A stretch of DNA of 64,000 nt from an uncultured Mycoplasma sp. (GCA_902493595.1 CABUPU010000002.1:73942-137941), one strand, 5' to 3'; positions 2,006 through 21,253 are shown, numbered from the stretch's first letter. Numbers and translations: made by a program. The notes: a model not told the origin generated them from the letters alone.

Positions 2006-2008
2006 GTG

Positions 2009-2042
2009 GTTACTTGCAAAGTAACTGCTTTTTTTATATAAT
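2009..2042 (+). promoter_or_regulatory. terminator hairpin fused to a sigma70-like promoter (copy 1 of 3 of a repeated cassette)
   Basis: gttactt-gca-aagtaac stem-loop followed by T7. TTGCAA (inside the hairpin) - 17 nt - TATAAT, then AAAGGA RBS and the ATG at 2066. Confidence 0.55.
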
Positions 2043-2065
2043 TGTTATAGTAAAGGAAAATAGAT

Positions 2066-4474: not shown

Positions 4475-4477
4475 GTG

Positions 4478-4511
4478 GTTGCTTGCAAAGTAACTACTTT
4501 TTTTATATAAT
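4478..4511 (+). promoter_or_regulatory. terminator hairpin + TTGCAA-N17-TATAAT promoter cassette (copy 2)
   Basis: gttgctt-gca-aagtaac stem (one G.U pair), then a T7 run and TATAAT at 4506-4511. The cassette is near-identical to copies 1 and 3. Confidence 0.55.
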
Positions 4512-4534
4512 TGTTATAGTAAAGGGTGTAAGAT

Positions 4535-6850
4535 ATGGATAGAGTATATATGACATTTTTAAGCAAAATAGATGTGGAGACTCCTTCGATGTTAAATATT
4601 TTAAGAAAAAAGGGACTTATTGCAACTCCAACTGATTTTGTTAAGTATTTATATGGTAATTATTCATATTTAATTGCTAGTGAGCCTTTATATAAAAAAC
4701 AATTTTTAACTACTTTTGATAAATCGTATCCAGATGGTATTAAAAACTATTTTGGAATAAGACCACTTATTGATACAAATAATATGCAAAGTTTCATAGA
4801 AAAAAATGCTATCTCTATTAATGGTAATGAAATTAAATTAGGTAGTTATCCAACAAGTGTAATTAAAGATGAAGCATTAATTCAAAAATTAAGTAATGCA
4901 TATAAAGAAAATAAGTTTAATGATAAAAAGTATCATATACCAATAGGAGATGAAATAATAGAGTGTAATTCAATTACTTTAGATGGCGAAGATTATGTTT
5001 ATATTAAAGAAAATGGTTTATATGTTAAAGTAACGCCACTTAATTGGTTTTATGATGAAGTATCGCACAGTTTAGTTTGCAAAGACATTATTGCAGGTTT
5101 TTCGATAAAACTTTCTGATAGAGCTTTTGAAAAATATGGTTACAACTTTTTAAATGAATATTTATTAAGGGATGTACTTCAAGATAAAATAACTAGATTA
5201 ACAGAACCAGTAGATTTAGTTAACCAAAAGTATTTAGATGAACTGCAGCAAATTGATTTCCCCTTTAAATCTGACTTTGAGGTAAGTAATGAAGGAAAAC
5301 TTTATTTTCACGATGAGAGGGAATATAATATTAACATCGATGACGAAAGCGTGAGAAAAATCGGTGAGTTTGCTCTTGAAAATTTAGATGCTTATGTTCA
5401 TAGAACTAATCCTGTGTTTAATATTAATATAAAAGGTAAAAAGAAAATCGTTGGCCTTCAGGCTTTTGATTTTTCCTCTTTAGGTTTAAATGCTAAAGTT
5501 AAAAGCCTTAATATTGATGTAGATGAACTTCGTGTAGCGGATCCGTTTATATGTGTTAATAGTCAAATTGAAAATGTATCAATGCATTGCGACTTTACTC
5601 TTTTTACAAGACTTTATTTTTGTGGCAAATATTTGGCTCGTAACTATTTAAAAGGTTCTAATTTAACTATTAAATACAAAAATGAAAAAGAACTTATAAT
5701 CTTTTTTAAAGATGTGCAAAGGTTTATTAATTTGCTAGCTAAATCAGATGAGAGAAATAAAATTGACTTTACTTATAAACATTCATTTTATGAGTGCCAT
5801 TCTCTTGCAGAATATAACTACAATTTTAATGCACAAACATTATTTTCTAAAATTGGTTTAGGTAGCATTAAGTTAGTTGGCCCTAGTATAAACAAAGATA
5901 GAATTGCAAATATTTTAGGAGAAATCCCTAATATTAAATATATTTTTACCGATACTCTTGAAGAAGAGACTAAAGAAAAAGATAAAGAGGAAAAACCAAA
6001 ACTTTCAAAAGAAGCTGAACATATACTTGATCTTTCTAGAGAAATATTAAGTATTGAATATATAGGACTTGATAAGGATAGTGTTAAAACAAAAGTCAAA
6101 GATATTGTTGATGAATATAATAATGGTTTATCAAAGAAAAATGAGGGGCTTTCACTAACAACAAATAATGGAGTATACACAGATGCAGTTATTAAGTTAG
6201 AAAAGTTAAGAGATACACTATACCATAATTTTGAAAAAAATCTTAATTATTATGATATTTTAGATTTAATAGAAAACATGATTAAAATGCTAAATAATGA
6301 TGAAGTTAATATAGATTATGAAATTTTAAAAGACTTAGAAACTTTAAATACTATTTTAAAATACAGTAAAGATGAACAAACTAAAGAAGAAATTATTACT
6401 TATTTAGAAAATGAAAGACAATTCATTACTGATTATTTATCTGGTAAGGCAGAAATTGAATATAAAAATGTAGATGAATTTGTTAAAAAGTTTAGATTAT
6501 TTTTAGTACCAATACTTACAAAAGTATCTGGTGATGTTTCAAAAATAGATGTAATGAGGCAAATAAAAGATTATGCTTTTAATGAAATGAATGATAAAAC
6601 TACAGAAAATACAAATAATTACATAAAGCTAATATTAAGTGAAATAGATAAAATTAAGAAAAACATTTTAGAACTTGATAGTGAATATGCATTCGAAGAC
6701 TTTGATTATTCATCATTTAAAACAGGAAAAGAAATACTTGATTATTTAGATAAAAAATATATGGAATATTATAGAGTATATTTAGATCTTATGAAAAATA
6801 AAGCTAACGAAGAAAACTATGAGAATAGTAAAGTGCCTTTAAATTTCTAA
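4535..6850 (+). CDS. paralog-family protein C (771 aa)
   Basis: Full ORF with RBS AAAGGGTG. Its C-terminal domain is ~80% identical to B and D, and it shares the N-terminal motif MDRVYMTFL. Confidence 0.8.
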   Translation: MDRVYMTFLSKIDVETPSMLNILRKKGLIATPTDFVKYLYGNYSYLIASEPLYKKQFLTTFDKSYPDGIKNYFGIRPLIDTNNMQSFIEKNAISINGNEIKLGSYPTSVIKDEALIQKLSNAYKENKFNDKKYHIPIGDEIIECNSITLDGEDYVYIKENGLYVKVTPLNWFYDEVSHSLVCKDIIAGFSIKLSDRAFEKYGYNFLNEYLLRDVLQDKITRLTEPVDLVNQKYLDELQQIDFPFKSDFEVSNEGKLYFHDEREYNINIDDESVRKIGEFALENLDAYVHRTNPVFNINIKGKKKIVGLQAFDFSSLGLNAKVKSLNIDVDELRVADPFICVNSQIENVSMHCDFTLFTRLYFCGKYLARNYLKGSNLTIKYKNEKELIIFFKDVQRFINLLAKSDERNKIDFTYKHSFYECHSLAEYNYNFNAQTLFSKIGLGSIKLVGPSINKDRIANILGEIPNIKYIFTDTLEEETKEKDKEEKPKLSKEAEHILDLSREILSIEYIGLDKDSVKTKVKDIVDEYNNGLSKKNEGLSLTTNNGVYTDAVIKLEKLRDTLYHNFEKNLNYYDILDLIENMIKMLNNDEVNIDYEILKDLETLNTILKYSKDEQTKEEIITYLENERQFITDYLSGKAEIEYKNVDEFVKKFRLFLVPILTKVSGDVSKIDVMRQIKDYAFNEMNDKTTENTNNYIKLILSEIDKIKKNILELDSEYAFEDFDYSSFKTGKEILDYLDKKYMEYYRVYLDLMKNKANEENYENSKVPLNF

Positions 6851-6853
6851 GTG

Positions 6854-6887
6854 GTTACTTGCAAAGTAACTGCTTTTTTTATATAAT
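6854..6887 (+). promoter_or_regulatory. terminator hairpin + TTGCAA-N17-TATAAT promoter cassette (copy 3)
   Basis: gttactt/aagtaac stem, T7 run, TTGCAA at 6859-6864 and TATAAT at 6882-6887. Identical to copy 1. Confidence 0.55.
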
Positions 6888-6910
6888 TGTTATAGTAAAG
6901 GGTGTAAGCT

Positions 6911-9202
6911 ATGAATAGAATATATATGACATTTCCTACTGAAGATGAAGTTAAATTTTTTCCTTGGTTAAAAGATGCAAATTCTTCTGCATTAGTGAGA
7001 GAATTGTTAAAAGATTTATACTATGAATCAGAAACTTTAATTGTGAATAAAAATGATACTTTAAATATTAAGAATAAACGCTTAGGCATTATAGTAAGAC
7101 CGGTTATTAATTCAAATGAATCTCTTGTTCCTTTTATTGAAAAAAATAGAATTAACAAGGGAGGTTATGATAGCATTTTACTTGGAACTTTTCCATTAAA
7201 AGTAGCAAATAATATAGACAGGGGTACGCTTACAGAAACAAATAAAAAAAGAACCATTCCGATTAATTATTCTATGGTAACTTTAAATGAATATACGGAT
7301 GGCAATCGAAATTTTGTTATTGTGGGTGATGATATTATTGAAATATTGCCTATTGAATGGGAATATGATGAAAGCATAAATAAATTATTTTGCAAAACTA
7401 GTATTTTTAAATGTAATACTAGTAAGACAAATGATTTATTGATGGCTTATAATTATATGAATAATCAACTTTTTATGGAAATGCTAGATGATTATACCGT
7501 TATAAAGGATAATTCTGATATAAAATTAATTGATGACAAAGGATACATATCATTTGATTATCCATATAGTTCCTTTATAGAGTTTGATGATTTAGGTAAT
7601 ATAATATTTCATGGTAATGAATATAATCTAACTATACCAAATACTGTAAGAAAAATAGATGAATATGCCTTTGATAAAATTCTTGGAAATGATAGTTCAA
7701 AATTATCTTTAAATATAGATATTGATGGTGATGATTTATCAATACCACCATATGCTTTTAATTTAAATACTATTCGTGCTAATGTACATATTGTGTATTT
7801 AAATGTTCATAACGAGTTAAGTGCAATCGGACAAGCCTCATTTAATACTAATTTTCCTATTGATAATATTACAATTTTGTGCGATTTTGCTCTTTTCTCT
7901 AGACTTTATTTAAGTGGTGATAATTTTGCAAAAAATCTTTTTGAAAATTCAAAATTTACTTTAACTTATACAAGCGAAAATGAATTAGTGAAATTTGTAA
8001 GTGATATAAATAGATTTTTTGAATTAATATATAAAAGTTTGCAAAAAGAAAAAAACAAACGATTTTATTCCAATGATGTAACCTCTATTGATTTTAGTTA
8101 CAAATTTAATACATATAAATATATAGATGCTTCAACTTGTATACCAAATATTGAACTTCTAAAAAACAAAGAAATTTTATCTATTTTAAAAGTAAGCTCT
8201 TTTACTTTAAAAGGTCCGACTATTAGTGATGAATTAATATCAAAATTATTTCCTAATTTTTCAGTAAAAAAGGAATTTACTGATTTAGTTCAAAAAGAAA
8301 AAACTGCAACTAAACAAATTGATGAACCAAAAAATAAAGAAGAAAAGGCAAAACTTTCTAAAGAAGTAGAGCACATACTGGATCTTGCTAGAGAAATAAT
8401 AAGCATCGAATACATAGGTCTTGATAAAGAAACAGTTCGTAAAAAAGTTGATGAAATTGTTATTGAATATAATAATGGATTATCTAAAAAAAGTGGGGGA
8501 TTATCATTAACAACAAATAATGGAGTGTATACAAATACTATTATTAAATTGGAAAACCTAAGAGATGCATTATATCATAATTTTGAAAAAAATCTTGGGT
8601 TTTATGATATTCTAGATTTAATTTCTAGTATGATTAAAAAACTAAATGATGAAGAGGTTAAAATAGATTATGAAATCTTAAAGGACTTAGATACTCTGAC
8701 TAAAATACTTAAGTATAGTAAAGATGAACAAACTAAAAATGAACTTATTTCCTATTTAGAAAATGAAAGCAAAAGAATAGTTGATTATTTATCTGGTAAG
8801 ATAGAAATTGATTATAAAAATATAGATGAATTTGTGAAAAAATTTAGATTATTCTTAGTACCAATACTTACAAGAGTATCTGGTAATGTATCAAAAGTAG
8901 ATGTAATGGAGCAAATAAAGGATTATGCTTTAGATGCAATGAATGATAAAACTACAGAAAATACAAATAATTACATAAAGCTAATATTAAGTGAAATAGA
9001 TAAAATTAAGAAAAACATTTTAGAACTTGATAGTGAATATGCATTCGAAGACTTTGATTATTCATCATTTAAAACAGGAAAAGAAATACTTGATTATTTA
9101 GATAAAAAATATATGGAATATTATAGAGTATATTTAGATCTTGTGGAAAATAAAGTTAATGAGGAAAACTATGAGAATAGTAAAGTACCTTTAATTTATT
9201 AA
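6911..9202 (+). CDS. paralog-family protein D (763 aa)
   Basis: Full ORF. The N-terminus MNRIYMTFP, the IPNTVRKIDEYAF LRR-like units and the conserved C-terminal domain are present. A 205-nt tract is identical to gene C. Confidence 0.8.
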   Translation: MNRIYMTFPTEDEVKFFPWLKDANSSALVRELLKDLYYESETLIVNKNDTLNIKNKRLGIIVRPVINSNESLVPFIEKNRINKGGYDSILLGTFPLKVANNIDRGTLTETNKKRTIPINYSMVTLNEYTDGNRNFVIVGDDIIEILPIEWEYDESINKLFCKTSIFKCNTSKTNDLLMAYNYMNNQLFMEMLDDYTVIKDNSDIKLIDDKGYISFDYPYSSFIEFDDLGNIIFHGNEYNLTIPNTVRKIDEYAFDKILGNDSSKLSLNIDIDGDDLSIPPYAFNLNTIRANVHIVYLNVHNELSAIGQASFNTNFPIDNITILCDFALFSRLYLSGDNFAKNLFENSKFTLTYTSENELVKFVSDINRFFELIYKSLQKEKNKRFYSNDVTSIDFSYKFNTYKYIDASTCIPNIELLKNKEILSILKVSSFTLKGPTISDELISKLFPNFSVKKEFTDLVQKEKTATKQIDEPKNKEEKAKLSKEVEHILDLAREIISIEYIGLDKETVRKKVDEIVIEYNNGLSKKSGGLSLTTNNGVYTNTIIKLENLRDALYHNFEKNLGFYDILDLISSMIKKLNDEEVKIDYEILKDLDTLTKILKYSKDEQTKNELISYLENESKRIVDYLSGKIEIDYKNIDEFVKKFRLFLVPILTRVSGNVSKVDVMEQIKDYALDAMNDKTTENTNNYIKLILSEIDKIKKNILELDSEYAFEDFDYSSFKTGKEILDYLDKKYMEYYRVYLDLVENKVNEENYENSKVPLIY

Positions 9203-9211
9203 ACTTCATAT

Positions 9212-9243
9212 AAAAAGTAGGATTAATAAAAATCCTATTTTTT
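9212..9243. terminator. bidirectional rho-independent terminator between the convergent gene D and the membrane-protein gene
   Basis: taggatt-aataa-aatccta hairpin flanked by an A5 run upstream and a T6 run downstream. Confidence 0.6.
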
Positions 9244-10059
9244 GTAAATAATACTGATTAATTTATTGAGTTCTTCTTTAGCTTCAACTGATAAACTACT
9301 GCTTTCATTTAAAATAATAGCATAAAGTATATATTCATTCCAAAGAGATATTTCTTTTAAAGACTTATCATTGAAATTGCCAAAATCTTTAAGATAATTT
9401 TTTAATCCTTTGAGTTTTAAATATATTTCTTTGCCTTTTTCAGTCTTTACTAGGCTTGCCTCTTTTAAAGAAAATCTTATCATTATAAAACTAATAATCC
9501 AAAATAATATAAATAGTATAATTTCTTGCTTTAAATAATTACTGTGTATTGTAATAAAATAAAAACAAATACCTCCGAATATAATGAAAGCTAAAAAATA
9601 AATCATTGTTGTAAAAGGATTATCTTTAAAGTAATATTTTTTTATACAGTTCTTTTGTTTTAGAGAATTTTCAATTTCTTTTATATAGTATTTATCAAAT
9701 TCCTTATCATTTATAAATTTATAATGATTTAAAATGTAAGATTGTTCTTGATTAACAGAAACATTATTAATTACATTTATTTCATCTTTTGCAAAAGATA
9801 TATATTTTTTGTTTTTTAAGTATTCAAGTTCTGCCATTTTTATTTGAGTAATATTTCTTTTGTTAAACAAATAACCAAGTTCACTAATTGAATAATCTTT
9901 TAAAATGTCCCTAAAATATTTGAATTTGTTTTCATCATTTTTATCAATCTTAATGCTTTTATAAAATAGTAGGTTTCTTTTTAAAACACTAATTATAAAA
10001 CACATTATGTAAATAATTAAAACTATAATTTGAATTTTTAATAATAAAATTTGACTCAC
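9235..10059 (-). CDS. hypothetical integral membrane protein (274 aa, GTG start)
   Basis: ORF with RBS GAAGGAAG 9 nt upstream of the GTG. It has an N-terminal TM helix and two central TM helices. The C-terminal region is loosely reminiscent of DUF2207-type proteins, but this is not verified. Confidence 0.5.
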   Translation of the reverse strand: MSQILLLKIQIIVLIIYIMCFIISVLKRNLLFYKSIKIDKNDENKFKYFRDILKDYSISELGYLFNKRNITQIKMAELEYLKNKKYISFAKDEINVINNVSVNQEQSYILNHYKFINDKEFDKYYIKEIENSLKQKNCIKKYYFKDNPFTTMIYFLAFIIFGGICFYFITIHSNYLKQEIILFILFWIISFIMIRFSLKEASLVKTEKGKEIYLKLKGLKNYLKDFGNFNDKSLKEISLWNEYILYAIILNESSSLSVEAKEELNKLISIIYKK

Positions 10060-10214
10060 AATAGCACACTTCCTTCTAAGAATATAATACCAGTAACAGA
10101 ATTATTTTTAAAGATTATTAAATATATTTACAATTAAAATATGTAAAGTTGAATTTTTTTATAGATTAATTTATAATTATCCTATATTATTTAATTGCTA
10201 AAGGAGAATTTATT

Positions 10215-10829
10215 ATGGATGAATATTTAAAATTAATAGTAAGACTTCAGTCACTAAGTCAAAATGGTCTTGCTTATGCAAATAATGAATATGATAAGGA
10301 AAGGTATGAAGAAATAAGAAATATTGCTTGTCATCTAATGGAATATAAAACTGATTTACCTTTTGAAAAAATAAAAGATTTATTTGGTAGTGAAAAGGGT
10401 TATCAAACACCTAAAATAGATACAAGAGCCGCTATTTTTAAAGATGATAAAATACTACTTGTACACGAAAATAATGATACTTGGGCTCTTCCTGGTGGTT
10501 GGTGTGATAATTTAGAAAGTGTAAAATCAAATACACTTAAAGAGGTAAAAGAGGAAGCTGGACTTACCGTGGAGGCTATAAAGTTAATTGCTGTTCAAGA
10601 TAGAAATAAACATAATACCCCAATTTATGCTTATGGTATTTGTAAAATATTTGTATTATGTAAAGTAGTAGGAGGCTCTTTTAAGAAAAATTGTGAAACA
10701 ATAGAAATGGGGTATTTTTCTTTGGAAGAGATTCCTAAGAATTTAGCTAATGAAAAAACTACTTTAGAACAAATTAAACTTTGTTTTGAGGCAAATAATA
10801 ATCAGAATTTTGAAACATATTTTGACTAA
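10215..10829 (+). CDS. NUDIX hydrolase (ADP-ribose pyrophosphatase-like) with Nudix N-terminal helical domain
   Basis: Nudix box GGWCDNLESVKSNTLKEVKEEAGL fits GX5EX7REUXEEXGU. RBS AAAGGAG lies upstream. Confidence 0.8.
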   Translation: MDEYLKLIVRLQSLSQNGLAYANNEYDKERYEEIRNIACHLMEYKTDLPFEKIKDLFGSEKGYQTPKIDTRAAIFKDDKILLVHENNDTWALPGGWCDNLESVKSNTLKEVKEEAGLTVEAIKLIAVQDRNKHNTPIYAYGICKIFVLCKVVGGSFKKNCETIEMGYFSLEEIPKNLANEKTTLEQIKLCFEANNNQNFETYFD

Positions 10830-10968
10830 TGTATTGCATAAAAATAAATATATTTAAATATGTTTGGATTTAAAATGAACTATTTAACATATGCACTAGA
10901 TATATTTTTATACTCATTTTATACAAATTTGAGTTTAAAAGAGTACTGCAAAAATATTCAGAAAATGT

Positions 10969-10998
10969 AAATAATTTGCAATGTATTGCAAATTATTT
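10969..10998. promoter_or_regulatory. perfect 14-2-14 palindromic operator overlapping the -35 of the ATPase gene promoter
   Basis: AAATAATTTGCAAT gt ATTGCAAATTATTT. The TTGCAA inside the right arm is followed after 17 nt by TATATT, then the RBS AGGTGA and the ATG at 11032. Confidence 0.55.
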
Positions 10999-11031
10999 TA
11001 TTTTGTGATATATTATATTTAGGTGAGATAT

Positions 11032-12219
11032 ATGATAGAGAGAAATGAATACTTAGAAGCATTAAAAAATTGGAAAGACAAAGATTTGATAAAAGTAGTT
11101 ACTGGTATAAGAAGGTGTGGTAAATCTACTTTATTTGAATTATTCGTAAATTATTTAAAACAAATAGGCGTTAATGATGAACATATAATATTTTTAAATC
11201 TTGAATCTCCTGAATATAATTTTAATGATTACATGGAACTTTATAATTATGTTAATGATAAAATAAAGGACAAAGATATGTATTATGTATTTTTGGATGA
11301 AGTTCAAGTTGTTCCACAATTTGAAAAGGCAGTCGATGGTCTTTATATAAAGAAAAATGTAGATGAATATATAACAGGTTCAAATGCTTATCTTCTATCT
11401 GGAGAACTTGCTACATTTTTATCTGGAAGATATGTGGAGTTTAAAATGTTTCCTTTATCATTTAAAGAATATGCAAATTACTACAAACAAGAAGGGGATG
11501 AGAAACTATATTTAAAATATATAAATAATAGTTCTATGCCTTATGCCTTAAAATTAGATAATCAAGATGAGGTTGATAAATATTTAGACAGTATATATAA
11601 TACAATAATAATTAAAGATATAGTAACTAGAAAAAAAATTGCTGATACAGGTATGCTTAGAAGCGTTTCTGAATTTATGTTTTCTAGTGTTGGTAACCTA
11701 TTATCTGTAAAAAAGATAGCTGATACATTAACATCTGCTGGAAGAAGTATATCAGTACATACAGTAGAAAACTATTTGGATTCTTTAGTAGAAAGCTTTA
11801 TTTTTAATAAGGCATCTAGATATGACATAAAAGGGAAACAATACTTAACTACTGGAGAAAAATATTATGCTACCGATGTTACTATGAGATATGCTTTGTT
11901 GGGTAGAAAATATATCGATTTAGGATGTATTTTAGAAAATATAGTATATTTGGAATTAGTAAGAAGAGGATATAAAGTATATATAGGTAAATCTGGTGAT
12001 AGAGAGATAGACTTTGTTGCAGAAAATAGTAAAGGAGTACAATATTTTCAAGTTGCATATACAGTAAGAGATAAAAATACATTAGAAAGAGAATTATCAG
12101 CTTTAGAATCCATAAATGATCATTATCCAAAATTTATATTAACAATGGATATAGATCCAGAAGTTGATTATAATGGAATAAGAAAAATTAATGTACTTGA
12201 TTGGTTGTTGGGCAAATAG
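11032..12219 (+). CDS. AAA+ ATPase of the COG1373 / AAA_14 + DUF4143 family
   Basis: Walker A GIRRCGKST and Walker B-like VFLDEVQ. The overall pattern is typical of the DUF4143 ATPase family. RBS AGGTGA is 5 nt upstream of the ATG at 11032. Confidence 0.75.
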   Translation: MIERNEYLEALKNWKDKDLIKVVTGIRRCGKSTLFELFVNYLKQIGVNDEHIIFLNLESPEYNFNDYMELYNYVNDKIKDKDMYYVFLDEVQVVPQFEKAVDGLYIKKNVDEYITGSNAYLLSGELATFLSGRYVEFKMFPLSFKEYANYYKQEGDEKLYLKYINNSSMPYALKLDNQDEVDKYLDSIYNTIIIKDIVTRKKIADTGMLRSVSEFMFSSVGNLLSVKKIADTLTSAGRSISVHTVENYLDSLVESFIFNKASRYDIKGKQYLTTGEKYYATDVTMRYALLGRKYIDLGCILENIVYLELVRRGYKVYIGKSGDREIDFVAENSKGVQYFQVAYTVRDKNTLERELSALESINDHYPKFILTMDIDPEVDYNGIRKINVLDWLLGK

Positions 12220-12227
12220 TTAGAGGA

Positions 12228-12500
12228 GTGATTAAATGTACTCCACAGCATGGTTTAATTCTTACAATGGATCCTCAAAGTGGGAAAATACTTGCTATGG
12301 GTTCAACTTTTAAAATAATTACTTTTACTGGCAATGATTCTATTATTGTAGGTGCAACACTACACTGCTGGAAATACGGAAGGACATTGAGTCCAAGCAT
12401 ACATTGAGGTTGCCAAAAATTCTTGCAATCAAGGATTTGTATCATTTGGTCAAAAATTAGGTGTACAAAAACTAATGCGTTTATTTATAAATTATAGTAA
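12228..12500 (+). pseudogene. decayed partial duplicate of the transpeptidase region of the downstream PBP gene
   Basis: DNA at 12228-12500 aligns with 13352-13750 of the PBP gene (HALILAMDPQSG.ILAMGS, STFKIIT, GATLHCWK, ENSCN.GFVS.GQKLG.QKLM), with two internal deletions between short direct repeats. ORF 12201..12407 is this remnant. Confidence 0.75.
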
Positions 12501-12641: not shown

Positions 12642-14543
12642 ATGTTTTATAAACTAATTCATACACGTATTAGATATATTTTTTTATTTGTATTTATAAT
12701 TCTTTTATGTGTAATAATAAAAGTATTTTATATTGAGGTAATAAGCTATAATAAACTTAAAAGTTTATCAGATGATTTATACTCAAGAAATCTTCCTATT
12801 AAAGCTGATAGGGGTAAAATAGTAGATAGAAATGGGTTAGTACTCGCAGATAATATTACAACTACCTCGCTTGTTTTAGTGCCAAGACAAATTAAAGATA
12901 AAGAAAAAGTAGCTAAAGATTTATCTGATATTTTAGGCACTTCTTACGAAGATATGCTTGCTCATGTAAGTAAGAAAACCTCAATTGAAAGAGTTCATCC
13001 TGAGGGAAGAAGACTTTCTTATGAAATCTCAGACAAAATAAATGATTTAAATTATGATGGAGTTTATCTTCTAAAAGAAAGTAAAAGGTATTATCCATAT
13101 AAAGAACTTTTATCGCATACTTTAGGTTATGTTGGTATAGATAATCAGGGCTTAAGCGGTCTTGAACTTATTTATGATGAATATTTAAAAGGTGAAGATG
13201 GCTCTATTAAATATTTTTCTGATGGTAAAGGAAATCGTCTTGAAATGGCGCAGGTTTATGAAAGCCCGACTGATGGGATAACTATAGGCTTAACTATAGA
13301 TTTAAATTTGCAAAAAGCAGTTGAGGGTGCCCTTGATGAAATAGTTTCTAAATATACTCCAGAACATGCTTTAATACTTGCAATGGATCCGCAAAGTGGA
13401 GAAATACTTGCTATGGGTTCAAGACCAGGATTTGATCCAAATAATTATAAAGATTATGATACTGAAACCATTAATAGAAATCTTCCTATTTGGATGACTT
13501 ATGAACCAGGTTCAACTTTTAAAATAATTACACTTGCCTCTTCGATTGAGGAAAAAACTATTGATTTATTCAAAGATACTTTTACTGATAGTGGTTCAAT
13601 TAATGTTGAGGGTGCAACACTACACTGTTGGAAACATGGGGGTCATGGAACGCAAACTTATCTTGAGGTAGTGGAAAATTCTTGCAACCCGGGATTTGTA
13701 TCAATGGGTCAAAAACTTGGTACACAAAAACTTATGAGTTATATAAAAAGTTTTGGTTTTGGTAAAAAAACAGGAATAGATTTAAATGGTGAAAGTAATG
13801 GAATACTTTTTAATATAAATAAAATGGGCCCAGTGGAAACTGCAACAACAGCATTTGGACAAGGAATAAGTGTTACTCCGTTGCAACAAATAACCGCAGT
13901 TAGTGCAGTCGTAAATGGAGGGAATTTATATAAACCTTACATAGTTAAAAGTTTAATGAATGAAAGTGGTGCACTTCTTGATTATAATGAAAAAGTTTTA
14001 GTAAAAAAAGTTATTAGTAAAGATACTTCCTCTCTTGTTAGATTTACTTTAGAGAGTGTTGTTGCTAATGGTACAGGAAGAAATGCATATATTGAAAATT
14101 ATCGTGTTGGTGGTAAAACAGGTACTGCTCAAAAAGTTGTTGATGGAAAATATTCATCCTCAAGTTATATTTTATCTTTTGTTGGTTTTATGCCTGCGGA
14201 TAATCCTAAAATTGTTATATATGTTGCAATTGATGGTGCCAAAAATGTAACTCAATATGGTGGTACTGCCTCTGCTCCAGTTGCTAAAAGTATTCTTACA
14301 AGTGCAATAGATATTTTAGGTATAAAGCCCTCAAAAGAGGGAATGCCTAAAGAGTATAATTATTTAGATAAAAAATATACCTATGTTCCTGATGTTACAG
14401 GAATGAGTCTTGAGGATGCTAAAAAAACTTTAAAAGGATTTAAAATTGAACTTTCTGGTAATGGTGAAAAAGTGTTTTATCAATCACCTGAAGTAGGTAC
14501 TTATATAGAGGAGGGTTCAACCGTAATGTTAATGCTTAAATAA
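12642..14543 (+). CDS. class B penicillin-binding protein (FtsI/SpoVD-like transpeptidase) with C-terminal PASTA domain
   Basis: SxxK (STFK), SxN (SCN) and KTG(T) motifs. N-terminal TM anchor, dimerisation domain, and a PASTA-like C-terminus (YVPDVTGMSLEDAKKTL...). Confidence 0.85.
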   Translation: MFYKLIHTRIRYIFLFVFIILLCVIIKVFYIEVISYNKLKSLSDDLYSRNLPIKADRGKIVDRNGLVLADNITTTSLVLVPRQIKDKEKVAKDLSDILGTSYEDMLAHVSKKTSIERVHPEGRRLSYEISDKINDLNYDGVYLLKESKRYYPYKELLSHTLGYVGIDNQGLSGLELIYDEYLKGEDGSIKYFSDGKGNRLEMAQVYESPTDGITIGLTIDLNLQKAVEGALDEIVSKYTPEHALILAMDPQSGEILAMGSRPGFDPNNYKDYDTETINRNLPIWMTYEPGSTFKIITLASSIEEKTIDLFKDTFTDSGSINVEGATLHCWKHGGHGTQTYLEVVENSCNPGFVSMGQKLGTQKLMSYIKSFGFGKKTGIDLNGESNGILFNINKMGPVETATTAFGQGISVTPLQQITAVSAVVNGGNLYKPYIVKSLMNESGALLDYNEKVLVKKVISKDTSSLVRFTLESVVANGTGRNAYIENYRVGGKTGTAQKVVDGKYSSSSYILSFVGFMPADNPKIVIYVAIDGAKNVTQYGGTASAPVAKSILTSAIDILGIKPSKEGMPKEYNYLDKKYTYVPDVTGMSLEDAKKTLKGFKIELSGNGEKVFYQSPEVGTYIEEGSTVMLMLK

Positions 14544-14631
14544 CTTCCGCTTGAATTTTAAAATATTTTTAAGACACTTTTAAAAAGCCTAAAAGTATTG
14601 TATACTAATTATAGTAAGATAGGTGATATTG

Positions 14632-14889
14632 ATGAGACAAACAAAAGGAATAGTTACTGAGGTATTTATGCCAAATGAATATAGAGAAGAGTTACTTCTT
14701 GATACATTAGATAATAATGTAATCGGCTTTAAAGTAAATACTAGTGATGGAGAAAGAGTAATAATCGAAGAAATTGATGAATTTAATAGTCAAATAATGA
14801 AGGATGACTTAGTTTTGATTACTGAGCAAACTATTGATGGTCATTATTTTATAGATATAGAACTTACTGAGGATGAAAATGAAATATGA
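14632..14889 (+). CDS. small acidic hypothetical protein (85 aa) immediately upstream of and overlapping the helicase gene
   Basis: ORF with AGGTGA 5 nt upstream of the ATG at 14632. It overlaps the helicase start by 17 nt, which suggests coupling. Confidence 0.45.
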   Translation: MRQTKGIVTEVFMPNEYREELLLDTLDNNVIGFKVNTSDGERVIIEEIDEFNSQIMKDDLVLITEQTIDGHYFIDIELTEDENEI

Positions 14890-17800
14890 TGTAGTAGGAT
14901 TATATGAACATAATGAAATAAGTTATGATAAAGTAAAAGAAGCTTTTAAAACTAGCGATGTTGTGGGAATAGTTCAAGCAACAGGTACTGGTAAAAGTTA
15001 TAATGCTTTACAGATTTGTTATGATAATCAGGGCAAAAAAATAATATATGTTGTGCCATCTTTAGGAATTATTGAACATATTAAATCAATAATCGAAGAA
15101 AATCCTAACTTATCATTAGATAAAGATTTTAAAAATGTTGAATTTAGAACCTATCAAAGTTTTTTAAACCTTTCAAAAAAAGAAATGGAAAGCATACCTT
15201 GTGATTTAATAATAGATGATGAATTTCATCATCTTGGAGCACCTGTATGGGGACAAAGAGTTAAAACATTTATAGAACTTCATCCAGGTGTTAAAGTATT
15301 TGGAATGACTGCTTATACTGTAAGAGATCGTGGAACAATATATGAAAGAGATATGGCTAATCCTGATACTGATGAATTGTTTTCAAATAAAATAGTTAGT
15401 AAATATGATTTATGTGATGCAATGGTTGATAAGGTATTACCAAAACCAATATATAAATGTGCTTATATAGGGTTAGAAAAAATGTTAAATGAATTCGAAG
15501 CCAAAGTAAAAGAAAGTAGCAAAGAAATAAATGAACTACTTGAAAGTGCTAGAAAGAAAGTCCACGAAGCACCAAGTATTAAAGATTTAGTAATAAAATC
15601 AATTAAGAAAAATGGTAAATATATTTATTTTTGTCCGCCATATTCAGAAAAAGGTGAAAATGATATTGAAAGTATAAAAAAGGAAGCCTTAGAATGGTTT
15701 AAATCTATTCTTCCCGAAGAAGATATTGTATTTTATACCTCGACAAGTGATATGGGAACATTTGGAAAGCAAAATAGAAAAGCTTTTTACAATGATTTAG
15801 ATTTAGAGGGTAAAGATGCCAAAGGAAAACTTCGTGTAATGTTTGCTATAAATCAATATAATGAAGGAATACATGCTCCCAATGTAGATGGAGTAATAAT
15901 GGGAAGAACAACTACATCAGATATAGTATTTTTTGAGCAGTTAGGAAGAGCATTGTCCGTAAAAGGAAATACTTTCGAAGAATATAATCATTTAATAAAT
16001 TTAAGTTATGAACAGTTACTCCAATTGTGTAAAGATAAAGATATTCCAGTAAAAGAAGATGCTACTAAAGAAGATATGATAGAAAGTTTACTTGCACCAG
16101 TGGTAATCGATTTAGTGGGAAACTATGAATATATAAAAGAACTTGAAAATAATTTACAAAATAGAGTTAAGGAAATTCAAAGTAAAGGCCCAGGTAATGA
16201 AAGAGTTATTAAATTAAAAAATCCTACATTTGATATTGAAGTTGAAAATAAAAACTTATATGAAATGTTAGAAAATTTAAGAGAAAAATTAACACTTTCT
16301 TGGAATGATATGTATGAATATGCAAAAAAATATTACGAACATTATGGAAATCTCGATGTACAGTATAAATTTAAAACCAATGATGGCTTCACTAAAAATG
16401 ATGATGGTAAAATAAATCTTGGGGTGTGGATTACTAATCAAAGACATAAACTTACTCCAGAAAGTGAAAAAGGAAAATTATTATTGCAAATAGGAATGAG
16501 TTTTGAAAATAAAAAAAGTACTTTTTCTTGGGAAGAAATGTATGAGTATGCAAAAAAATATTATGAGCATTATAAAAATCTTGAAGTTCCTCATAGGTTC
16601 AAAACCGATGATGGTTTTTCGTCAAATGAATATGGAAAAATAAATCTCGGAGTTTGGATTCAAAATCAAAGATATAAAATTTCTGTAGATAGTGAAAAAG
16701 GAAAGTTACTTTCTCAAATAGGAATGCGTTTTGAACGGAAAAAAATCTCTTGGGAAGAAATGTATGAATATGCAAAAAAATATTATGAACATTATAAAGA
16801 TCTTGAGGTGCCTATCAAATTTAAAACAAACGATGGTTTTACTAGAGATGACAATGGCAAAATAAACTTAGGAGCTTGGCTTCAAAATCAGAAATATATT
16901 ATTTCCCCGGATAGTGAAAGAGAAAAGTTACTAATGCAAATAGGAATGCACTTTGAGCGAAAAAATATTTCTTGGGAAGAAATGTATGAATATGCAAAGA
17001 AATATTATGAACATTATAAAGATCTTGAAGTACCTGCTAAATTTAAAACAACTAATGGATTTACTAAAGATGACAATGGTAAAATTAATTTAGGAATATG
17101 GATCTTGTCTCAAAGGCATAATATTTCTCCGGACAGTGAAAAAGGAAAGTTATTATCACAAATAGGAATGAGTTTTGAAAATAAAAAAAGTACTCTTTCC
17201 TGGGAAGAAATGTATGAATATGCAAAGAAATATTATGAACATTATGGAAACCTTGAGGTATCTGCCAAATTTAAAACGAATGATGGTTTTACTAGAGATG
17301 ACAATGGTAATATTAATTTAGGTGCTTGGATTTCATATCAAAGAAAAAGAGTTTCTCCAGAAAGTGAAAAGGGAAAACTACTATCACAAATAGGAATGCG
17401 TTTTGAAACAAAGAAAAATGTTTCTTGGGAAGAAATGTATGAGTATGCAAAGAAATATTATGAACATTATGCAAACCTTGAGGTACCTAACAAATTCAAA
17501 ACCAATGATGGTTATACCTTTGATGAGAAAGGTGAAATAAATCTTGGAAATTGGATTATTGCACAAAGGCATAATATTTCTCCGGACAGTGAAAAAGGCA
17601 AACTACTTTCACAAATAGGACTGCGTTTTGCAAATTTAAGAAGTCTAATTTCATGGGAAGAAATGTATGAGCAAGCTAAAAAATATCAAAAATATTATGG
17701 CAATCTTGAAGTACCTAAAAAATTTAGAACTGATGATATTTATACTTATGATAAAAATGGTAAAATTAAATTGGGATTATGGGTAGATAGAATGCGTAAA

Positions 17801-18634
17801 ACAATTGATCTCCAAAGTGAAAAAGGCAAGCTACTTACGCAAATTGGTATGAGATTTACTGAAGAAGTTCCGGATGAAGTTTGGTTAAATATGTATTCTT
17901 ATGCAAAAAGGTATTATGATACATGGGGATATTTAGCAAATATGAACTGCGAATTTAAAACCAATGATGGCGTTAATTACGATAAGTATGGCAAAATTAA
18001 TTTGGGATTATGGGTAGATGAACAAAAAAATCTTATTGCTCCGGAAAGTAAACGAGGTAGAATGCTTGCCCAACTTGGTATGGATTTTCCTAAAAAGAAA
18101 ATGACCTGGTTTACAATGTATGAACTTGCAAAAAAATATTATGAATACTACGATAATCTTAGAATTCCTATAACTTTTAAAACTAACGATGGAATTAATT
18201 ATGATAAAAATGGTAAATTTGACTTAGGACTGTGGTTATTTCGCCAATTTGAAAACAATGACCCGACTAGTGAACAAGGTATTTTACTTTCAAATATTGG
18301 AATGATATGGAACAATGATATAAGACTTTTACAACTTCATATAGCGTGTGATGCTCACAAAATAGACTTTGAAAAGTATAAAGATGAGCTTTTCAAAATT
18401 CCAATTTCCTTGTTATGTGCCAAAATGGATTTTTTATACTTTAATTCTATTCCAATTATAGATAGTGAAGGCAATCTTAATGAAATATTTAATTTAAATA
18501 GTACTGAAATTTATGAAAAATATAATATTACAATTAAACAGTTACTTTCTAAATATAAGTCTACTTTAAACTTTTGCAGTTATATTCTTAAAAAACGATT
18601 AAGTGAGAGTGAAAAAAATAAAAAAGTTTTATAA
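14873..18634 (+). CDS. DEAH/ResIII-type SF2 helicase with nine C-terminal helicase-associated (HA, PF03457-like) domains
   Basis: Walker A-like ATGTGKS and motif II DDEFHH (DEAHH-like) at the N-terminus. Then nine ~73-aa units of pattern SWEEMYEYAKKYYEHYGNLEVPxKFKTNDGFTxDDNGKINLGxWIxNQR...EKGKLLSQIGMRF. Confidence 0.75.
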   Translation: MKMKYDVVGLYEHNEISYDKVKEAFKTSDVVGIVQATGTGKSYNALQICYDNQGKKIIYVVPSLGIIEHIKSIIEENPNLSLDKDFKNVEFRTYQSFLNLSKKEMESIPCDLIIDDEFHHLGAPVWGQRVKTFIELHPGVKVFGMTAYTVRDRGTIYERDMANPDTDELFSNKIVSKYDLCDAMVDKVLPKPIYKCAYIGLEKMLNEFEAKVKESSKEINELLESARKKVHEAPSIKDLVIKSIKKNGKYIYFCPPYSEKGENDIESIKKEALEWFKSILPEEDIVFYTSTSDMGTFGKQNRKAFYNDLDLEGKDAKGKLRVMFAINQYNEGIHAPNVDGVIMGRTTTSDIVFFEQLGRALSVKGNTFEEYNHLINLSYEQLLQLCKDKDIPVKEDATKEDMIESLLAPVVIDLVGNYEYIKELENNLQNRVKEIQSKGPGNERVIKLKNPTFDIEVENKNLYEMLENLREKLTLSWNDMYEYAKKYYEHYGNLDVQYKFKTNDGFTKNDDGKINLGVWITNQRHKLTPESEKGKLLLQIGMSFENKKSTFSWEEMYEYAKKYYEHYKNLEVPHRFKTDDGFSSNEYGKINLGVWIQNQRYKISVDSEKGKLLSQIGMRFERKKISWEEMYEYAKKYYEHYKDLEVPIKFKTNDGFTRDDNGKINLGAWLQNQKYIISPDSEREKLLMQIGMHFERKNISWEEMYEYAKKYYEHYKDLEVPAKFKTTNGFTKDDNGKINLGIWILSQRHNISPDSEKGKLLSQIGMSFENKKSTLSWEEMYEYAKKYYEHYGNLEVSAKFKTNDGFTRDDNGNINLGAWISYQRKRVSPESEKGKLLSQIGMRFETKKNVSWEEMYEYAKKYYEHYANLEVPNKFKTNDGYTFDEKGEINLGNWIIAQRHNISPDSEKGKLLSQIGLRFANLRSLISWEEMYEQAKKYQKYYGNLEVPKKFRTDDIYTYDKNGKIKLGLWVDRMRKTIDLQSEKGKLLTQIGMRFTEEVPDEVWLNMYSYAKRYYDTWGYLANMNCEFKTNDGVNYDKYGKINLGLWVDEQKNLIAPESKRGRMLAQLGMDFPKKKMTWFTMYELAKKYYEYYDNLRIPITFKTNDGINYDKNGKFDLGLWLFRQFENNDPTSEQGILLSNIGMIWNNDIRLLQLHIACDAHKIDFEKYKDELFKIPISLLCAKMDFLYFNSIPIIDSEGNLNEIFNLNSTEIYEKYNITIKQLLSKYKSTLNFCSYILKKRLSESEKNKKVL
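16293..18310 (+). repeat. nine tandem ~220-bp coding repeats (HA-domain units); the central six are near-identical at the DNA level
   Basis: Units start near 16297, 16527, 16749, 16968, 17199, 17420, 17652, 17880 and 18105. The block tcttgggaagaaatgtatga(a/g)tatgcaaa(a/g)aaatattatgaacattat recurs. Confidence 0.8.
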
Positions 18635-18670: not shown

Positions 18671-18740
18671 ATTTGCTTTTAGTATTTTAAAGAATAGTTC
18701 TATTTACTTTTGAAATTCATAAAATTTAATGAGGAAAAAT

Positions 18741-19724
18741 ATGATTTTAACTAAGACTATTTTATGTTTAATATTAGGTTTTTTATCTTCATTAGTATTA
18801 GGCTTTTTAGTAGTACCATTTTTTAAGAAATGTCATATGTATCAAAGTATATCAAAAACTATTTCTAAAAGACATCTTTTAAAAGAGGGGACTCCCACAA
18901 TGGGAGGAGTTATTTTCATAATTAGTACATTATTTATAATTATTTTTTTGTTTTTAAATAAGAATATTCATTTTAATTTAAATTTATTTATAATATTATG
19001 CATATTTATTTTGTATGCATTTCTTGGATTTATTGATGATCTTCTTAAAATAAGATTTCATAATAATAAAGGACTATCAATAATTTTAAAGTTTTTTATT
19101 CAAGTTATTATTGGAATATTTTTCTTTGTTTTATTTTTAATTTCAGGAAATAATACAGTTCTTAATTTTTATTTATTTTCAATAGATTTAAAATATTTAT
19201 ATGGTCTTTTAATTTTATTTATGCTTGTTGGTGGTTCTAATGCAGTAAATATTACAGATGGTCTTGACGGTCTTGCTGCCGGATTATGCACGATATCATT
19301 TATTTCTTATGGAATTATTGCCTTTAATAGTCCATTTATTTTGGGTTATGAAGAAATAGGTATTTTTTGTTTTACTTTGGCAGGAGCTTTAATAGGATTT
19401 TTGTTTTTTAATTTTTATCCTGCCAAAATATTTATGGGTGATTTAGGTTCCCTTTCTTTAGGTGCCACTCTTGCATCGGTATCTATTTTGCTTAAATGTG
19501 AACTTTCCCTTGTTATAATTGGTTTAGTCTTTATCATTGAAACTCTTTCAAGTTTTATTCAAATTATTTCTATAAGATACTTTAATAAAAAAATATTTTT
19601 AAAAAGTCCACTTCATCATCATTTTGAGATGCTAGGTTTTAAAGAAACAGATATTATAAAACTATTTTATTTAGTCTCTTTAGTATGCTCTTTAATAACT
19701 CTTATTTATATATTAGTTCATTAA
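18741..19724 (+). CDS. mraY: phospho-N-acetylmuramoyl-pentapeptide transferase
   Basis: Polytopic membrane protein with MraY hallmarks (TPTMGG, NAVNITDGLDGLA, HHHFE). GAGG RBS 6 nt upstream of the ATG at 18741. Confidence 0.85.
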   Translation: MILTKTILCLILGFLSSLVLGFLVVPFFKKCHMYQSISKTISKRHLLKEGTPTMGGVIFIISTLFIIIFLFLNKNIHFNLNLFIILCIFILYAFLGFIDDLLKIRFHNNKGLSIILKFFIQVIIGIFFFVLFLISGNNTVLNFYLFSIDLKYLYGLLILFMLVGGSNAVNITDGLDGLAAGLCTISFISYGIIAFNSPFILGYEEIGIFCFTLAGALIGFLFFNFYPAKIFMGDLGSLSLGATLASVSILLKCELSLVIIGLVFIIETLSSFIQIISIRYFNKKIFLKSPLHHHFEMLGFKETDIIKLFYLVSLVCSLITLIYILVH

Positions 19725-19756: not shown

Positions 19757-19785
19757 TTGCCATTACGCTTAAAATATGATAGTAT
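19757..19785 (+). promoter_or_regulatory. sigma70-like promoter TTGCCA-N17-TAGTAT with TG extended -10 (copy 1 of a duplicated promoter module)
   Basis: The block ctttacaatgatttgcca...aaaatatgatagtat is conserved with 20685-20725. Confidence 0.5.
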
Positions 19786-19802
19786 ACACGGCGGGTGGTT
19801 TT

Positions 19803-20684
19803 ATGAAAAATAGTAATAGTTTTGAATTATTAATTGCACATGATAAAAAGATTGGCGAAGCATATAAAAAACTATGTATGGATTTAATAAATAATGATTT
19901 TGAACAATCCAAAGTATCTTGCAAAAATATTCTTGAACTTATTAAAATTGAAACGAGCATGCTAGATAAAATGACAAAGGAAGAACTTGAATATTATGTT
20001 GATCTTGCAGATATTATATTTACAATGGATGAAGTTGATGATGAAACATATAGAGCTAGTGAAAAGATAGTGCAAACCTATATGGCTAAATTTGAAAAAC
20101 CATTAGAATATGATTTTTCTGATGAAGAGGAAGACTTTGAAAAACTTTCGCGAATTATCCCTGATTTTGCTTTTACTCAAAAAGAACTAGATAGATATTT
20201 TCAATATAATCAAACTTATAAATATAATGCAATGTGCTATGCTAGTAAGATAATTTTAAATGACGAATTAGGTATTAAGTCAAATAATTCTAAATTTTAT
20301 GATTTATTAAGAAAAAAATGCATTCATAACTTAATTTATTATGCTTACCATAGTTATGAAGTTGAATGTTATATTTTAAGCCATAATATGCAAATGGATT
20401 ATGTACCTGAAATTTATGATGATTATTTTAATCCTCTTAATGTAGAAGAATGTAAAAAGATTATTTCTAAATGGAAAGATGCTAGTGATAATCAAAATCC
20501 TGATTGCTGTTTTACAAACTTAGAGGATACTTATAAATTAAAATGTTATTTACATAGTTTAGAAAGAACAGAACTTACAAATATATTTGATTATATTCTC
20601 CATCTTAAAGAAGAACATTCAAGCAAAATGCTAGACTACTATGAAAATATTGTATTAGAAAAAATAGATGATTTATCTAGATAA
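19803..20684 (+). CDS. hypothetical cytoplasmic protein (293 aa)
   Basis: ORF downstream of promoter copy 1. I recognise no domain. Confidence 0.5.
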   Translation: MKNSNSFELLIAHDKKIGEAYKKLCMDLINNDFEQSKVSCKNILELIKIETSMLDKMTKEELEYYVDLADIIFTMDEVDDETYRASEKIVQTYMAKFEKPLEYDFSDEEEDFEKLSRIIPDFAFTQKELDRYFQYNQTYKYNAMCYASKIILNDELGIKSNNSKFYDLLRKKCIHNLIYYAYHSYEVECYILSHNMQMDYVPEIYDDYFNPLNVEECKKIISKWKDASDNQNPDCCFTNLEDTYKLKCYLHSLERTELTNIFDYILHLKEEHSSKMLDYYENIVLEKIDDLSR

Positions 20685-20696
20685 CTTTACACTGAT

Positions 20697-20725
20697 TTGA
20701 CATTTTTGTGAAAATATGATAGAAT
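20697..20725 (+). promoter_or_regulatory. sigma70 promoter TTGACA-N17-TAGAAT with TG extended -10 (copy 2)
   Basis: ctttacactgatttgaca...aaaatatgatagaat, followed by the RBS AAGGGGGG and the ATG at 20750. Confidence 0.55.
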
Positions 20726-20749
20726 GTTGATAACTAAGGGGGGTTAGTT

Positions 20750-21253
20750 ATGAAAAATAATAAAATATTTAAGGGAGTATTAAGTATTTGTTTAGTGGCT
20801 AGTATAAGTGCTACTTCATATTGCATTAAGAAAAGTAATGAAGAGCAAAGTAATATATATGAACCAAATTATTTATATAGTGAAGAAACATTTGAAGTAA
20901 GTAAAGAATCTCGTGAAAAAATGATGACAATAGTTATGAATGAACCAAGTTATGGTTTAGAACCTGAACTTACTTATGATGATGCTTTAGAGTATTTCTG
21001 GGGTAGACCATTTCAACATTTAGAGTCAATATTAGAGAAATTTTATGAAGGTCAAAATGTACCAGTATTTAAAAATAGTGATGAGGTTTCTGGCTATTTT
21101 AAATTAAATGGAATAGATAGTTATGCATACTCCATTGAAGATGACCTTATATGGCATTTAAATGGTGATGGTGAAATAGAAAGTATTCAAAATACTCATG
21201 AAGCGGTAAGTAATTATAATAAATATTGTTTATCTTTAAATAGAAAAAGATAA
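20750..21253 (+). CDS. secreted/lipoprotein-like hypothetical protein (167 aa)
   Basis: N-terminal signal peptide MKNNKIFKGVLSICLVASISATSYC. Strong RBS AAGGGGGGTTAGTT. Confidence 0.6.
   Translation: MKNNKIFKGVLSICLVASISATSYCIKKSNEEQSNIYEPNYLYSEETFEVSKESREKMMTIVMNEPSYGLEPELTYDDALEYFWGRPFQHLESILEKFYEGQNVPVFKNSDEVSGYFKLNGIDSYAYSIEDDLIWHLNGDGEIESIQNTHEAVSNYNKYCLSLNRKR

Follow-up and report, generated by a model that had tools for sequence, protein, structure and literature searches.

In a 64,000-nt stretch of DNA from an uncultured Mycoplasma sp. (GCA_902493595.1, CABUPU010000002.1:73942-137941; hereafter the window, with positions counted from its first letter), we describe a chromosomal module of two genes from an uncultured gut lineage of low-GC Bacilli, in which a gene for a superfamily 2 (SF2) helicase carrying nine tandem helicase-associated (HA) domains overlaps a gene for a small acidic protein. 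In our best explanation, to which we give a probability of roughly 0.55, the large protein would be an ATP-driven DNA translocase or helicase whose nine flexible three-helix HA modules bind DNA and hold or target the motor there. The 85-aa acidic protein, with a predicted fold like the oligonucleotide/oligosaccharide-binding (OB) fold, would be co-made with the helicase and serve it as a partner: it might regulate the basic HA array, or else be a small accessory that binds strands. HA units 1-6 would vary in number and composition by in-register recombination, and units 7-9 would stay fixed. The features concerned are the following, where ORF stands for open reading frame.

14632..14889, plus strand: small acidic gene of the putative partner, 85 aa, with AGGTGA 5 nt upstream of the ATG at 14632
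14873..18634, plus strand: helicase-HA gene, 1253 aa, a single long ORF with an alternative start at ATG 14879
14873..16300, plus strand: SF2 ATPase/helicase core, aa 1-476, made of two RecA-like domains (the second predicted) and a helical linker region
14978..14998, plus strand: Walker A/motif I ATGTGKS, aa 36-42, read in the translation and invariant in the homologue alignment
15218..15232, plus strand: Walker B/motif II DEFHH, aa 116-120, read in the translation, with D116, E117, F118 and H120 invariant in the alignment
16301..17653, plus strand: HA units 1-6, aa 477-927, a mutually similar, apparently recombining, strain-variable block
17654..18328, plus strand: HA units 7-9, aa 928-1152, a block of mutually diverged units that is stable between strains
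18329..18631, plus strand: C-terminal tail, about 100 aa, without known domain

An earlier note on this DNA had read a ResIII/DEAH-like core with the motifs ATGTGKS and DEFHH, and this reading holds: the gene is one ORF, Pfam places ResIII on aa 11-147 (E 1.4e-9), and both motifs are present in the translation. As judged from the alignments, the ATPase is under strong constraint, since the key residues of motifs I, II and VI (QLGRAL) are invariant among 37 aligned homologues and the ratio of non-synonymous to synonymous divergence (dN/dS) of the core is 0.08 between the window and its 92%-identical relative L010. In the AlphaFold2 (AF2) model of aa 1-1152 (mean predicted local distance difference test, pLDDT, 77; predicted template-modelling score, pTM, 0.43), the core is alpha/beta, and its top Foldseek matches in the PDB, at 11–16% identity, are the Type ISP enzyme LlaBIII, archaeal XPB, RadD and SauUSI. 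Because these closest solved folds are dsDNA translocases and repair helicases, a DNA-type motor is suggested. On our reading, the large protein is an active ResIII-type SF2 ATPase that would most likely translocate along DNA or unwind it. A phmmer search of the whole helicase protein against PDB sequences gave no match, NCBIfam, PHROGs and PADLOC scans of the helicase and the small ORF returned generic or sub-threshold matches only, and look-ups of the exact sequences of the window helicase and of the neighboring MraY found no record. A Pfam match to tRNA_int_end_N2 was dismissed as spurious, no stretch of it passing individually.

The nine HA units announced by the earlier note were recovered by W..MY motif anchoring and by a family hidden Markov model (HMM). 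They measure 74–76 aa each and start at aa 477, 553, 627, 701, 777, 852, 928, 1004 and 1079 (array nt 16301..18328), and the Pfam HA family PF03457 scores 272.6 bits on the protein (cut-off 28.4, E 1.2e-82), eight stretches passing individually. Moreover, a profile built from the window units together with those of Ruminococcus albus matches the solved HA domain 2KTA (‘putative helicase’; E 3.3e-6), with which the window units have the signature W...Y / LG.W..QR / L..IG in common; without the R. albus units, a profile of the nine window units missed 2KTA and gave only non-significant homeodomain matches. AF2 models each unit confidently as helix - long loop - helix - helix, and all inter-unit linkers have a pLDDT below 50. 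Since the units are folded, the linkers poorly predicted and the pTM only 0.43, the array may be interpreted as flexible beads on a string. The C-terminal tail has no Pfam match at E ≤ 0.1 and nothing credible at E ≤ 1; it is conserved in the family consensus.

What the array binds is best approached through the relatives of the core. The helicase-HA protein has more than 1600 homologues, and an exhaustive profile-free search found 2514 representative clusters related to the core. We scanned with Pfam 50 distant core relatives in which the family-specific HA model saw no HA, and the domains found among them were HA (18), Sigma70_r4 (14), RNA_pol_A_CTD (13) and HHH_5 (6). Indeed, the relatives with Sigma70_r4 and RNA_pol_A_CTD have, like the window protein, a homologous SF2 core (33–40% identity over aa 8-366) followed by a C-terminal series of small helical DNA-binding modules, but these are promoter-DNA-reading domains instead of HA. 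As an example, P0308, P0311, P0318 and P0335 (also P0323) carry C-terminally one Sigma70_r4 and two to three copies of RNA_pol_A_CTD, and in P0293 a complete sigma-70 (regions 2, 3 and 4) is fused N-terminally to the core; helicases fused to sigma region 4 or to the alpha-CTD were not described in the literature searched. Because sister relatives carry such domains, the core appears to have been joined repeatedly to small helical DNA-binding modules, and these domain swaps are the strongest computational argument for the HA array being the DNA-binding or targeting part. Published work is consistent with this suggestion: by its title, the study of Mills et al. 2013 (cited through PMC12191111) concerns DNA binding by the HA domain of BVU_0683 from Bacteroides vulgatus (PDB 2KTA), and a preprint on the Streptomyces helicase TtrA (bioRxiv 10.1101/2024.11.13.623437) states that HA domains may bind DNA. 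The domain of BVU_0683 belongs to the same Pfam family as the window units, each of which is predicted to have three helices, and, as far as the title tells, that work deals with one isolated HA domain and not with an array.

An architectural parallel may be drawn with the chromatin remodellers ISWI and CHD1, in which an SF2 DNA translocase is combined with homeodomain- or SANT-like three-helix modules. A CHD1 structure stands at rank 24 of the Foldseek matches, and homeodomains are among the non-significant matches of the HA profiles both with and without the R. albus units; however, the window protein is without the Snf2-specific insertion and has no specific sequence relationship to these remodellers, so that this is analogy and not homology. 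As nucleosomes are absent from bacteria, the resemblance is architectural only.

The small acidic ORF had been mentioned in the earlier note as overlapping the helicase start, which was correct and, if anything, understated. Its start is the ATG at 14632, since the GTG listed at 14623 falls within its Shine-Dalgarno sequence, and its homologues begin with MRQ or MKQ. The product, with an isoelectric point of 4.05 and a net charge of -16, carries an acidic tail, EDENEI, at its C-terminus. The stop codon at 14887-14889 overlaps the helicase start, the two genes sharing 17 nt when the helicase is counted from 14873 and 11 nt when it is counted from ATG 14879. The latter is the likelier helicase start (for a gene of 3756 nt), as GAGGA lies 7 nt upstream of it and gene callers put the start at the second ATG in related contigs. 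The small gene stands upstream of 60 of the 72 complete helicase genes, and its homologues (78–97 aa) overlapped the helicase in the same way at all loci of the first set examined, where the other neighbors differ. In distant members, its identity (48–53%) is similar to that of the helicase itself. Of the roughly 800 homologues of the small protein, none carries a Pfam domain or an informative name, and the exact 85-aa sequence occurs on 865 contigs. We consider this to be a conserved protein, probably coupled translationally with the helicase. AF2 confidently predicts it (pLDDT 85.5, pTM 0.74) as a barrel of five strands, a short helix lying between the third and the fourth; Pfam gave nothing credible at E ≤ 1, and comparison of the model with viral structures added nothing. 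In 34 of the 72 loci, a third ORF, encoding about 100 aa (‘MFLEKYLN...’, no Pfam match), lies within a few bases 3′ of the helicase (e.g., L027:3015-3353, L005:9749-10060 and L008:10625-10954), only after the last copy where the module is in tandem. It is not present in the window, where the helicase C-terminal tail is weakly similar to the third ORF of other genomes (E 0.002).

Turning to the history of the array, the earlier note had described its central six units as near-identical at the nucleotide level and as a recent expansion, and neither point survived. The mutually similar units are the first six; pairwise they are 71–81% identical in DNA and 64–76% in protein, the longest exact run common to any two units is 45 nt, and Tandem Repeats Finder reports 6.5 copies with 78% matches. 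Units 7-9 have 56–65% nucleotide identity to the other units. The pooled synonymous divergence (dS) among units 1-6 is ~0.85, against 0.19 for the helicase core between the window and L010, so that the unit duplications are much older than the split of these two genomes; by this measure, units 1-6 are old duplicates. Between the same two genomes, the locus has 93–99% DNA identity overall, whereas units 1-6 fall to 77–89%; the identity then recovers from 89% at 17582-17731 to 95% at 17732-17881 and 99% from nt 17882 on (units 8-9). In units 1-6, both rates are raised (dS 0.64, dN 0.154, dN/dS 0.24), and we read this divergence as shuffling or replacement of units. Positive selection was set aside as its cause, being undemonstrated when synonymous sites are raised equally; at the variable unit positions, a post hoc choice, omega is 0.6–0.9 versus 0.13–0.19 elsewhere. 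Units within one protein are also more alike than those of distant orthologues, as in P0020, where they are mostly 71–88% identical to each other versus 54–68% to window units 1-7, which indicates concerted evolution or independent expansions of HA units.

The number of units varies within the species, as the earlier note had anticipated. The same-species set consisted of ten long contigs (0.22–1.12 Mb) from different samples, found through the exact 85-aa sequence of the small protein. Seven of these assemblies have a helicase of equal length (3756 nt), 99.2–99.7% identical to the window copy. An eighth, L093 (GCA_021628585.1, 1.12-Mb contig; 8248..12009), has the same nine-unit layout over 3762 nt, with three 1-nt insertions and one 3-nt insertion by which the frame is broken and the gene split into five ORFs; these could be long-read sequencing errors, as we suspect, or the gene could be a pseudogene. 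The neighboring genes of L093 are shortened as well. Since seven other assemblies are equal in gene length and L093 has the same layout, the nine-unit count in the window is, from this comparison, not an assembly artefact, a doubt that the earlier note had itself raised. In L090 and L098, the array carries in-frame, in-register deletions of 225 nt (one unit) and of 222+675 nt (four units), respectively; the 225-nt deletion runs from offset 183 of unit 5 to offset 182 of unit 6, and the identity at the deletion junctions is short (12, 4 and 4 nt). The within-species counts are thus 9, 8 and 5, and closely related alleles in the protein database have 7, 6 and 4 units, with the compositions 1-2-3-6-7-8-9, 1-2-3-7-8-9, 1-2'-7-8-9 and 1-7-8-9. 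Units 7-9 are kept in all shortened alleles of the window clade. Across the family, complete genes hold from 2 to 13 units, which answers the comparison of orthologues that the earlier note had proposed; note that many short-read contigs end inside the array, and that long contigs give safer counts than fragmented assemblies do.

Such variability would be expected if the module were an anti-phage or anti-mobile-element defence or conflict system, in which foreign DNA is sensed by the HA array and an arms race has produced the variable units. We regard this explanation as unlikely. Several observations speak for it: between close genomes, divergence is much greater in units 1-6 than elsewhere in the locus, and copy number varies; the module is duplicated in tandem in several genomes; defence-type genes flank it, namely the PDC-S01/DUF4143 ATPase in the window and Abi_2 with AbiEi/AbiEii in L001; the core resembles the ATPases of the Type ISP and SauUSI restriction enzymes; a weak PADLOC mREase_IV match covers a 46-aa motif stretch; and, according to a figure legend in a defence paper (PMC12191111), HA occurs fused to PLD nucleases. 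However, in none of the three proteins did Pfam scans find a nuclease or another effector domain, and no PADLOC-DB 2.0 system model was matched, the only hits being the local mREase_IV one and sub-threshold matches. The position of the module, between a penicillin-binding protein (PBP) gene and mraY, is fixed in all ten strains, as for a core gene, and its neighbors across 70 loci are mostly housekeeping genes, not conserved, and not defence islands. In addition, the excess in units 1-6 is found at synonymous sites too (dS 0.64 vs 0.19), which, with the dN/dS of 0.24, points to unit shuffling.

The explanation that we prefer, a DNA-tethered SF2 motor with a small partner and recombining units 1-6, has its own difficulties, and the following points weigh against it. 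DEAH RNA helicases come next in the Foldseek list with slightly weaker E-values. The second RecA-like domain gives no Pfam Helicase_C match in the window protein, this domain being present by Pfam in 46 of the 50 core relatives scanned; AF2 does model an alpha/beta second domain, but its motif V/VI region (aa 328-354) has a pLDDT of ~31. We infer DNA over RNA only from the fold neighbors, the domain swaps and the title of one nuclear magnetic resonance paper. The best fold matches of the small protein are OB folds (RPA, HIN, uS12 and LEF-3) and are non-significant (E ≥ 0.016, template-modelling score 0.45–0.58), and it is the gene coupling alone that suggests a physical interaction with the helicase.

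Part of this applies directly to a second alternative, namely that the large protein is an RNA helicase or ribonucleoprotein remodeller of ribosome or transcript metabolism, whose HA domains bind structured RNA and whose small neighbor is an S1- or cold-shock-like RNA binder. Indeed, the DEAH/RHA helicases DHX36, HrpA and Prp43 are among the fold matches, the small protein weakly matches ribosomal uS12 and the NCBIfam model ‘putative RNA-binding protein’ (E 0.005), and transcription or translation genes lie near the locus in several genomes (rpoB/rpoC here, nusB in L001). Nevertheless, we find it rather improbable, because the best fold matches are DNA enzymes, the sister clades swap HA for promoter-DNA-binding domains, HA occurs in the DNA-acting proteins TniQ and TtrA and is reported by title as DNA-binding (Mills 2013), and the gene neighborhood is not conserved.

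A bolder form of the DNA-binding explanation, which we hold as a quite doubtful speculation, would make the HA array a modular and re-programmable DNA-recognition device. Over 400 distinct units, the near-invariant scaffold consists of W1, Y5, A8, K9, Y11, Y12, L18, F24, T26, G29, G36, L40, G41, W43, Q47, R48, L61 and I64. Positions 22, 42, 45, 46, 49-53, 59, 62 and 63 have an entropy of 2.3–3.6 bits, which reaches 2.8–3.6 bits at 42, 45, 46, 49 and 50 and at loop position 22, versus 0–1 bit in the scaffold. Helix 2 spans positions 40-50 in the AF2 model and, from helical periodicity, positions 42, 45, 46, 49 and 50 would share one of its faces, opposite the core face of W43, I44 and L40. Each unit might then read a short DNA segment through this face, hypervariable and exposed to solvent, and loop 22, strains might re-target the motor by gain, loss and exchange of units in the manner of TALE or PPR proteins, and the small acidic protein might gate access to DNA. 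The entropy pattern and the unit shuffling between close genomes permit this idea and do not demand it.

The architecture itself is already recognised. In Pfam, HA is described as a domain of which bacterial helicases carry multiple copies, and the statement of the earlier note that HA-domain helicases of this size are uncommon has to be abandoned, given the number of homologues and the proteins of comparable length in RefSeq. On plasmid pRUMAL01 of R. albus 7, two tandem genes annotated ‘Helicase associated domain protein’ (WP_013483605.1 and WP_013483606.1) encode 1197 and 990 aa with about seven or eight HA units each, and their tandem arrangement recalls that of some Bacilli metagenome-assembled genomes (MAGs); beside them, no homologue of the 85-aa protein is annotated in the PLSDB table, which is incomplete. 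The Streptomyces linear-plasmid protein WP_266976150.1 (1042 aa) has the same Pfam domain order as the window protein. The described member is Streptomyces TtrA, a subtelomeric, conjugation-related helicase with tandem HA domains according to the preprint mentioned above (10.1101/2024.11.13.623437). Like the window protein, the TtrA-type and RefSeq helicases have a ResIII-type SF2 core of ~470 aa followed by at least seven HA units, for 990–1200 aa in total. In contrast, they are only 21–35% identical to it, and in the window units, unlike theirs, 8 residues are inserted in the loop following helix 1, and the loop joining helices 2 and 3 is shorter. The window copy is also chromosomal, in a circular-genome low-GC gut lineage, and not telomere-associated, whereas TtrA is subtelomeric on a linear replicon. 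By these comparisons, the window protein is best taken as sharing the architecture of TtrA and not as a TtrA orthologue. The acidic protein, the third ORF and the strain-level polymorphism of units were not described in the literature searched.

A TtrA-like transfer function, in which the helicase would process conjugative or element-specific DNA and the module would be mobile-element cargo, is suggested by the collinearity with WP_266976150.1 (BLASTP 21% identity, E 4e-27, from motif II through the array), by the reported role of TtrA, and by the location of the module at different chromosomal positions in different genera and of some relatives on megaplasmids, but is very improbable, as no relaxase, integrase, transposase or terminal repeats recur beside the module in 70 loci, within the species it keeps to one position (contigs of 0.2–1.1 Mb), the phage collection holds no close relatives (five weak matches at ≤ 39% identity, the best being 29% over 74% of the core; three come from faecal ‘Bacteriophage sp.’ contigs that lack annotation), and the gene upstream of the Streptomyces helicase is not homologous to the small acidic protein. 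Homology between the latter and that gene, which overlaps the Streptomyces helicase start, was rejected at an hhalign probability of 0.2%.

In the window (GC ~25%), the module lies between a class B PBP gene (12642..14543) and mraY (18729..19724), all on the same strand in a run of cell-wall genes, with rpoB/rpoC (named by Pfam in the same-species loci) a few kb downstream. No terminator-like sites were found in the two intergenic gaps, and the promoter scan gave 53 promoter-like sites versus 49 expected; both scans are uninformative in such AT-rich DNA. In other genera, the module stands beside unrelated, mostly housekeeping genes. Tandem arrays of two to three copies of the small ORF and helicase were found in L006/L007 (6001..15474), L072, L073, L076, L077, L081, L083 and L087. 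In the species-level genome collection, almost all carriers of the family are MAGs of uncultured ‘Bacilli’ from human, rabbit, goat and deer guts, together with Clostridium sp. CAG:710 and CAG:433 and ‘Tenericutes’ UMGS bins. Horizontal transfer to Bacteroidales was considered and rejected, since the contigs concerned have 24–28% GC and are probably mis-binned; they are the short contigs L011, L034, L047, L048, L068 and L078 in Bacteroides, Muribaculaceae or Paludibacteraceae bins.

Outside the PBP and mraY genes, the flanks vary between strains, a DUF4143/PDC-S01 gene being present or absent upstream and two alternative gene sets following mraY. The former (11023..12219, plus strand) encodes a DUF4143/AAA ATPase matching the PADLOC candidate PDC-S01 (E 6e-154), occurs only in the window, L092 and L099, and is directly followed at ~12204..12477 by a decayed partial PBP copy (aa 227-365, 39–72% identity), which suggests that it was inserted with a partial duplication of the PBP gene. 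After mraY, the window has two ORFs of 302 and 167 aa without Pfam match (19776..21253, plus strand), replaced in L091 and L094-L098 by a 49-aa ORF on the opposite strand and an ORF of 503–518 aa. Further upstream, at 251..9202 (plus strand), four tandem paralogous ORFs of 584, 802, 771 and 763 aa are 45–60% identical and have no Pfam match; the 584-aa ORF can be aligned with its paralogues only over their C-terminal part, beginning near residue 183-220, and the number and lengths of these paralogues differ between strains L090-L099.

Altogether, HA-array helicases are widespread in Bacillota and Actinomycetota, and to our knowledge no mechanism is known for them and only Streptomyces TtrA has a reported phenotype. 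The class of the window protein was thus already known, and what is new here is the conserved acidic partner candidate and the documented natural variation in repeat number. Should the units prove to read DNA sequence, the array would represent a new modular scaffold for recognising DNA; otherwise, this would be one more uncharacterised helicase. In either case, this lineage offers a natural experiment, in which a core chromosomal gene of a small-genome gut bacterium exists as alleles differing in the number of HA units, and the conserved small protein, together with the sister clades that carry DNA-binding domains of RNA polymerase, leads to testable hypotheses on HA arrays as devices that may tether or target an SF2 motor.

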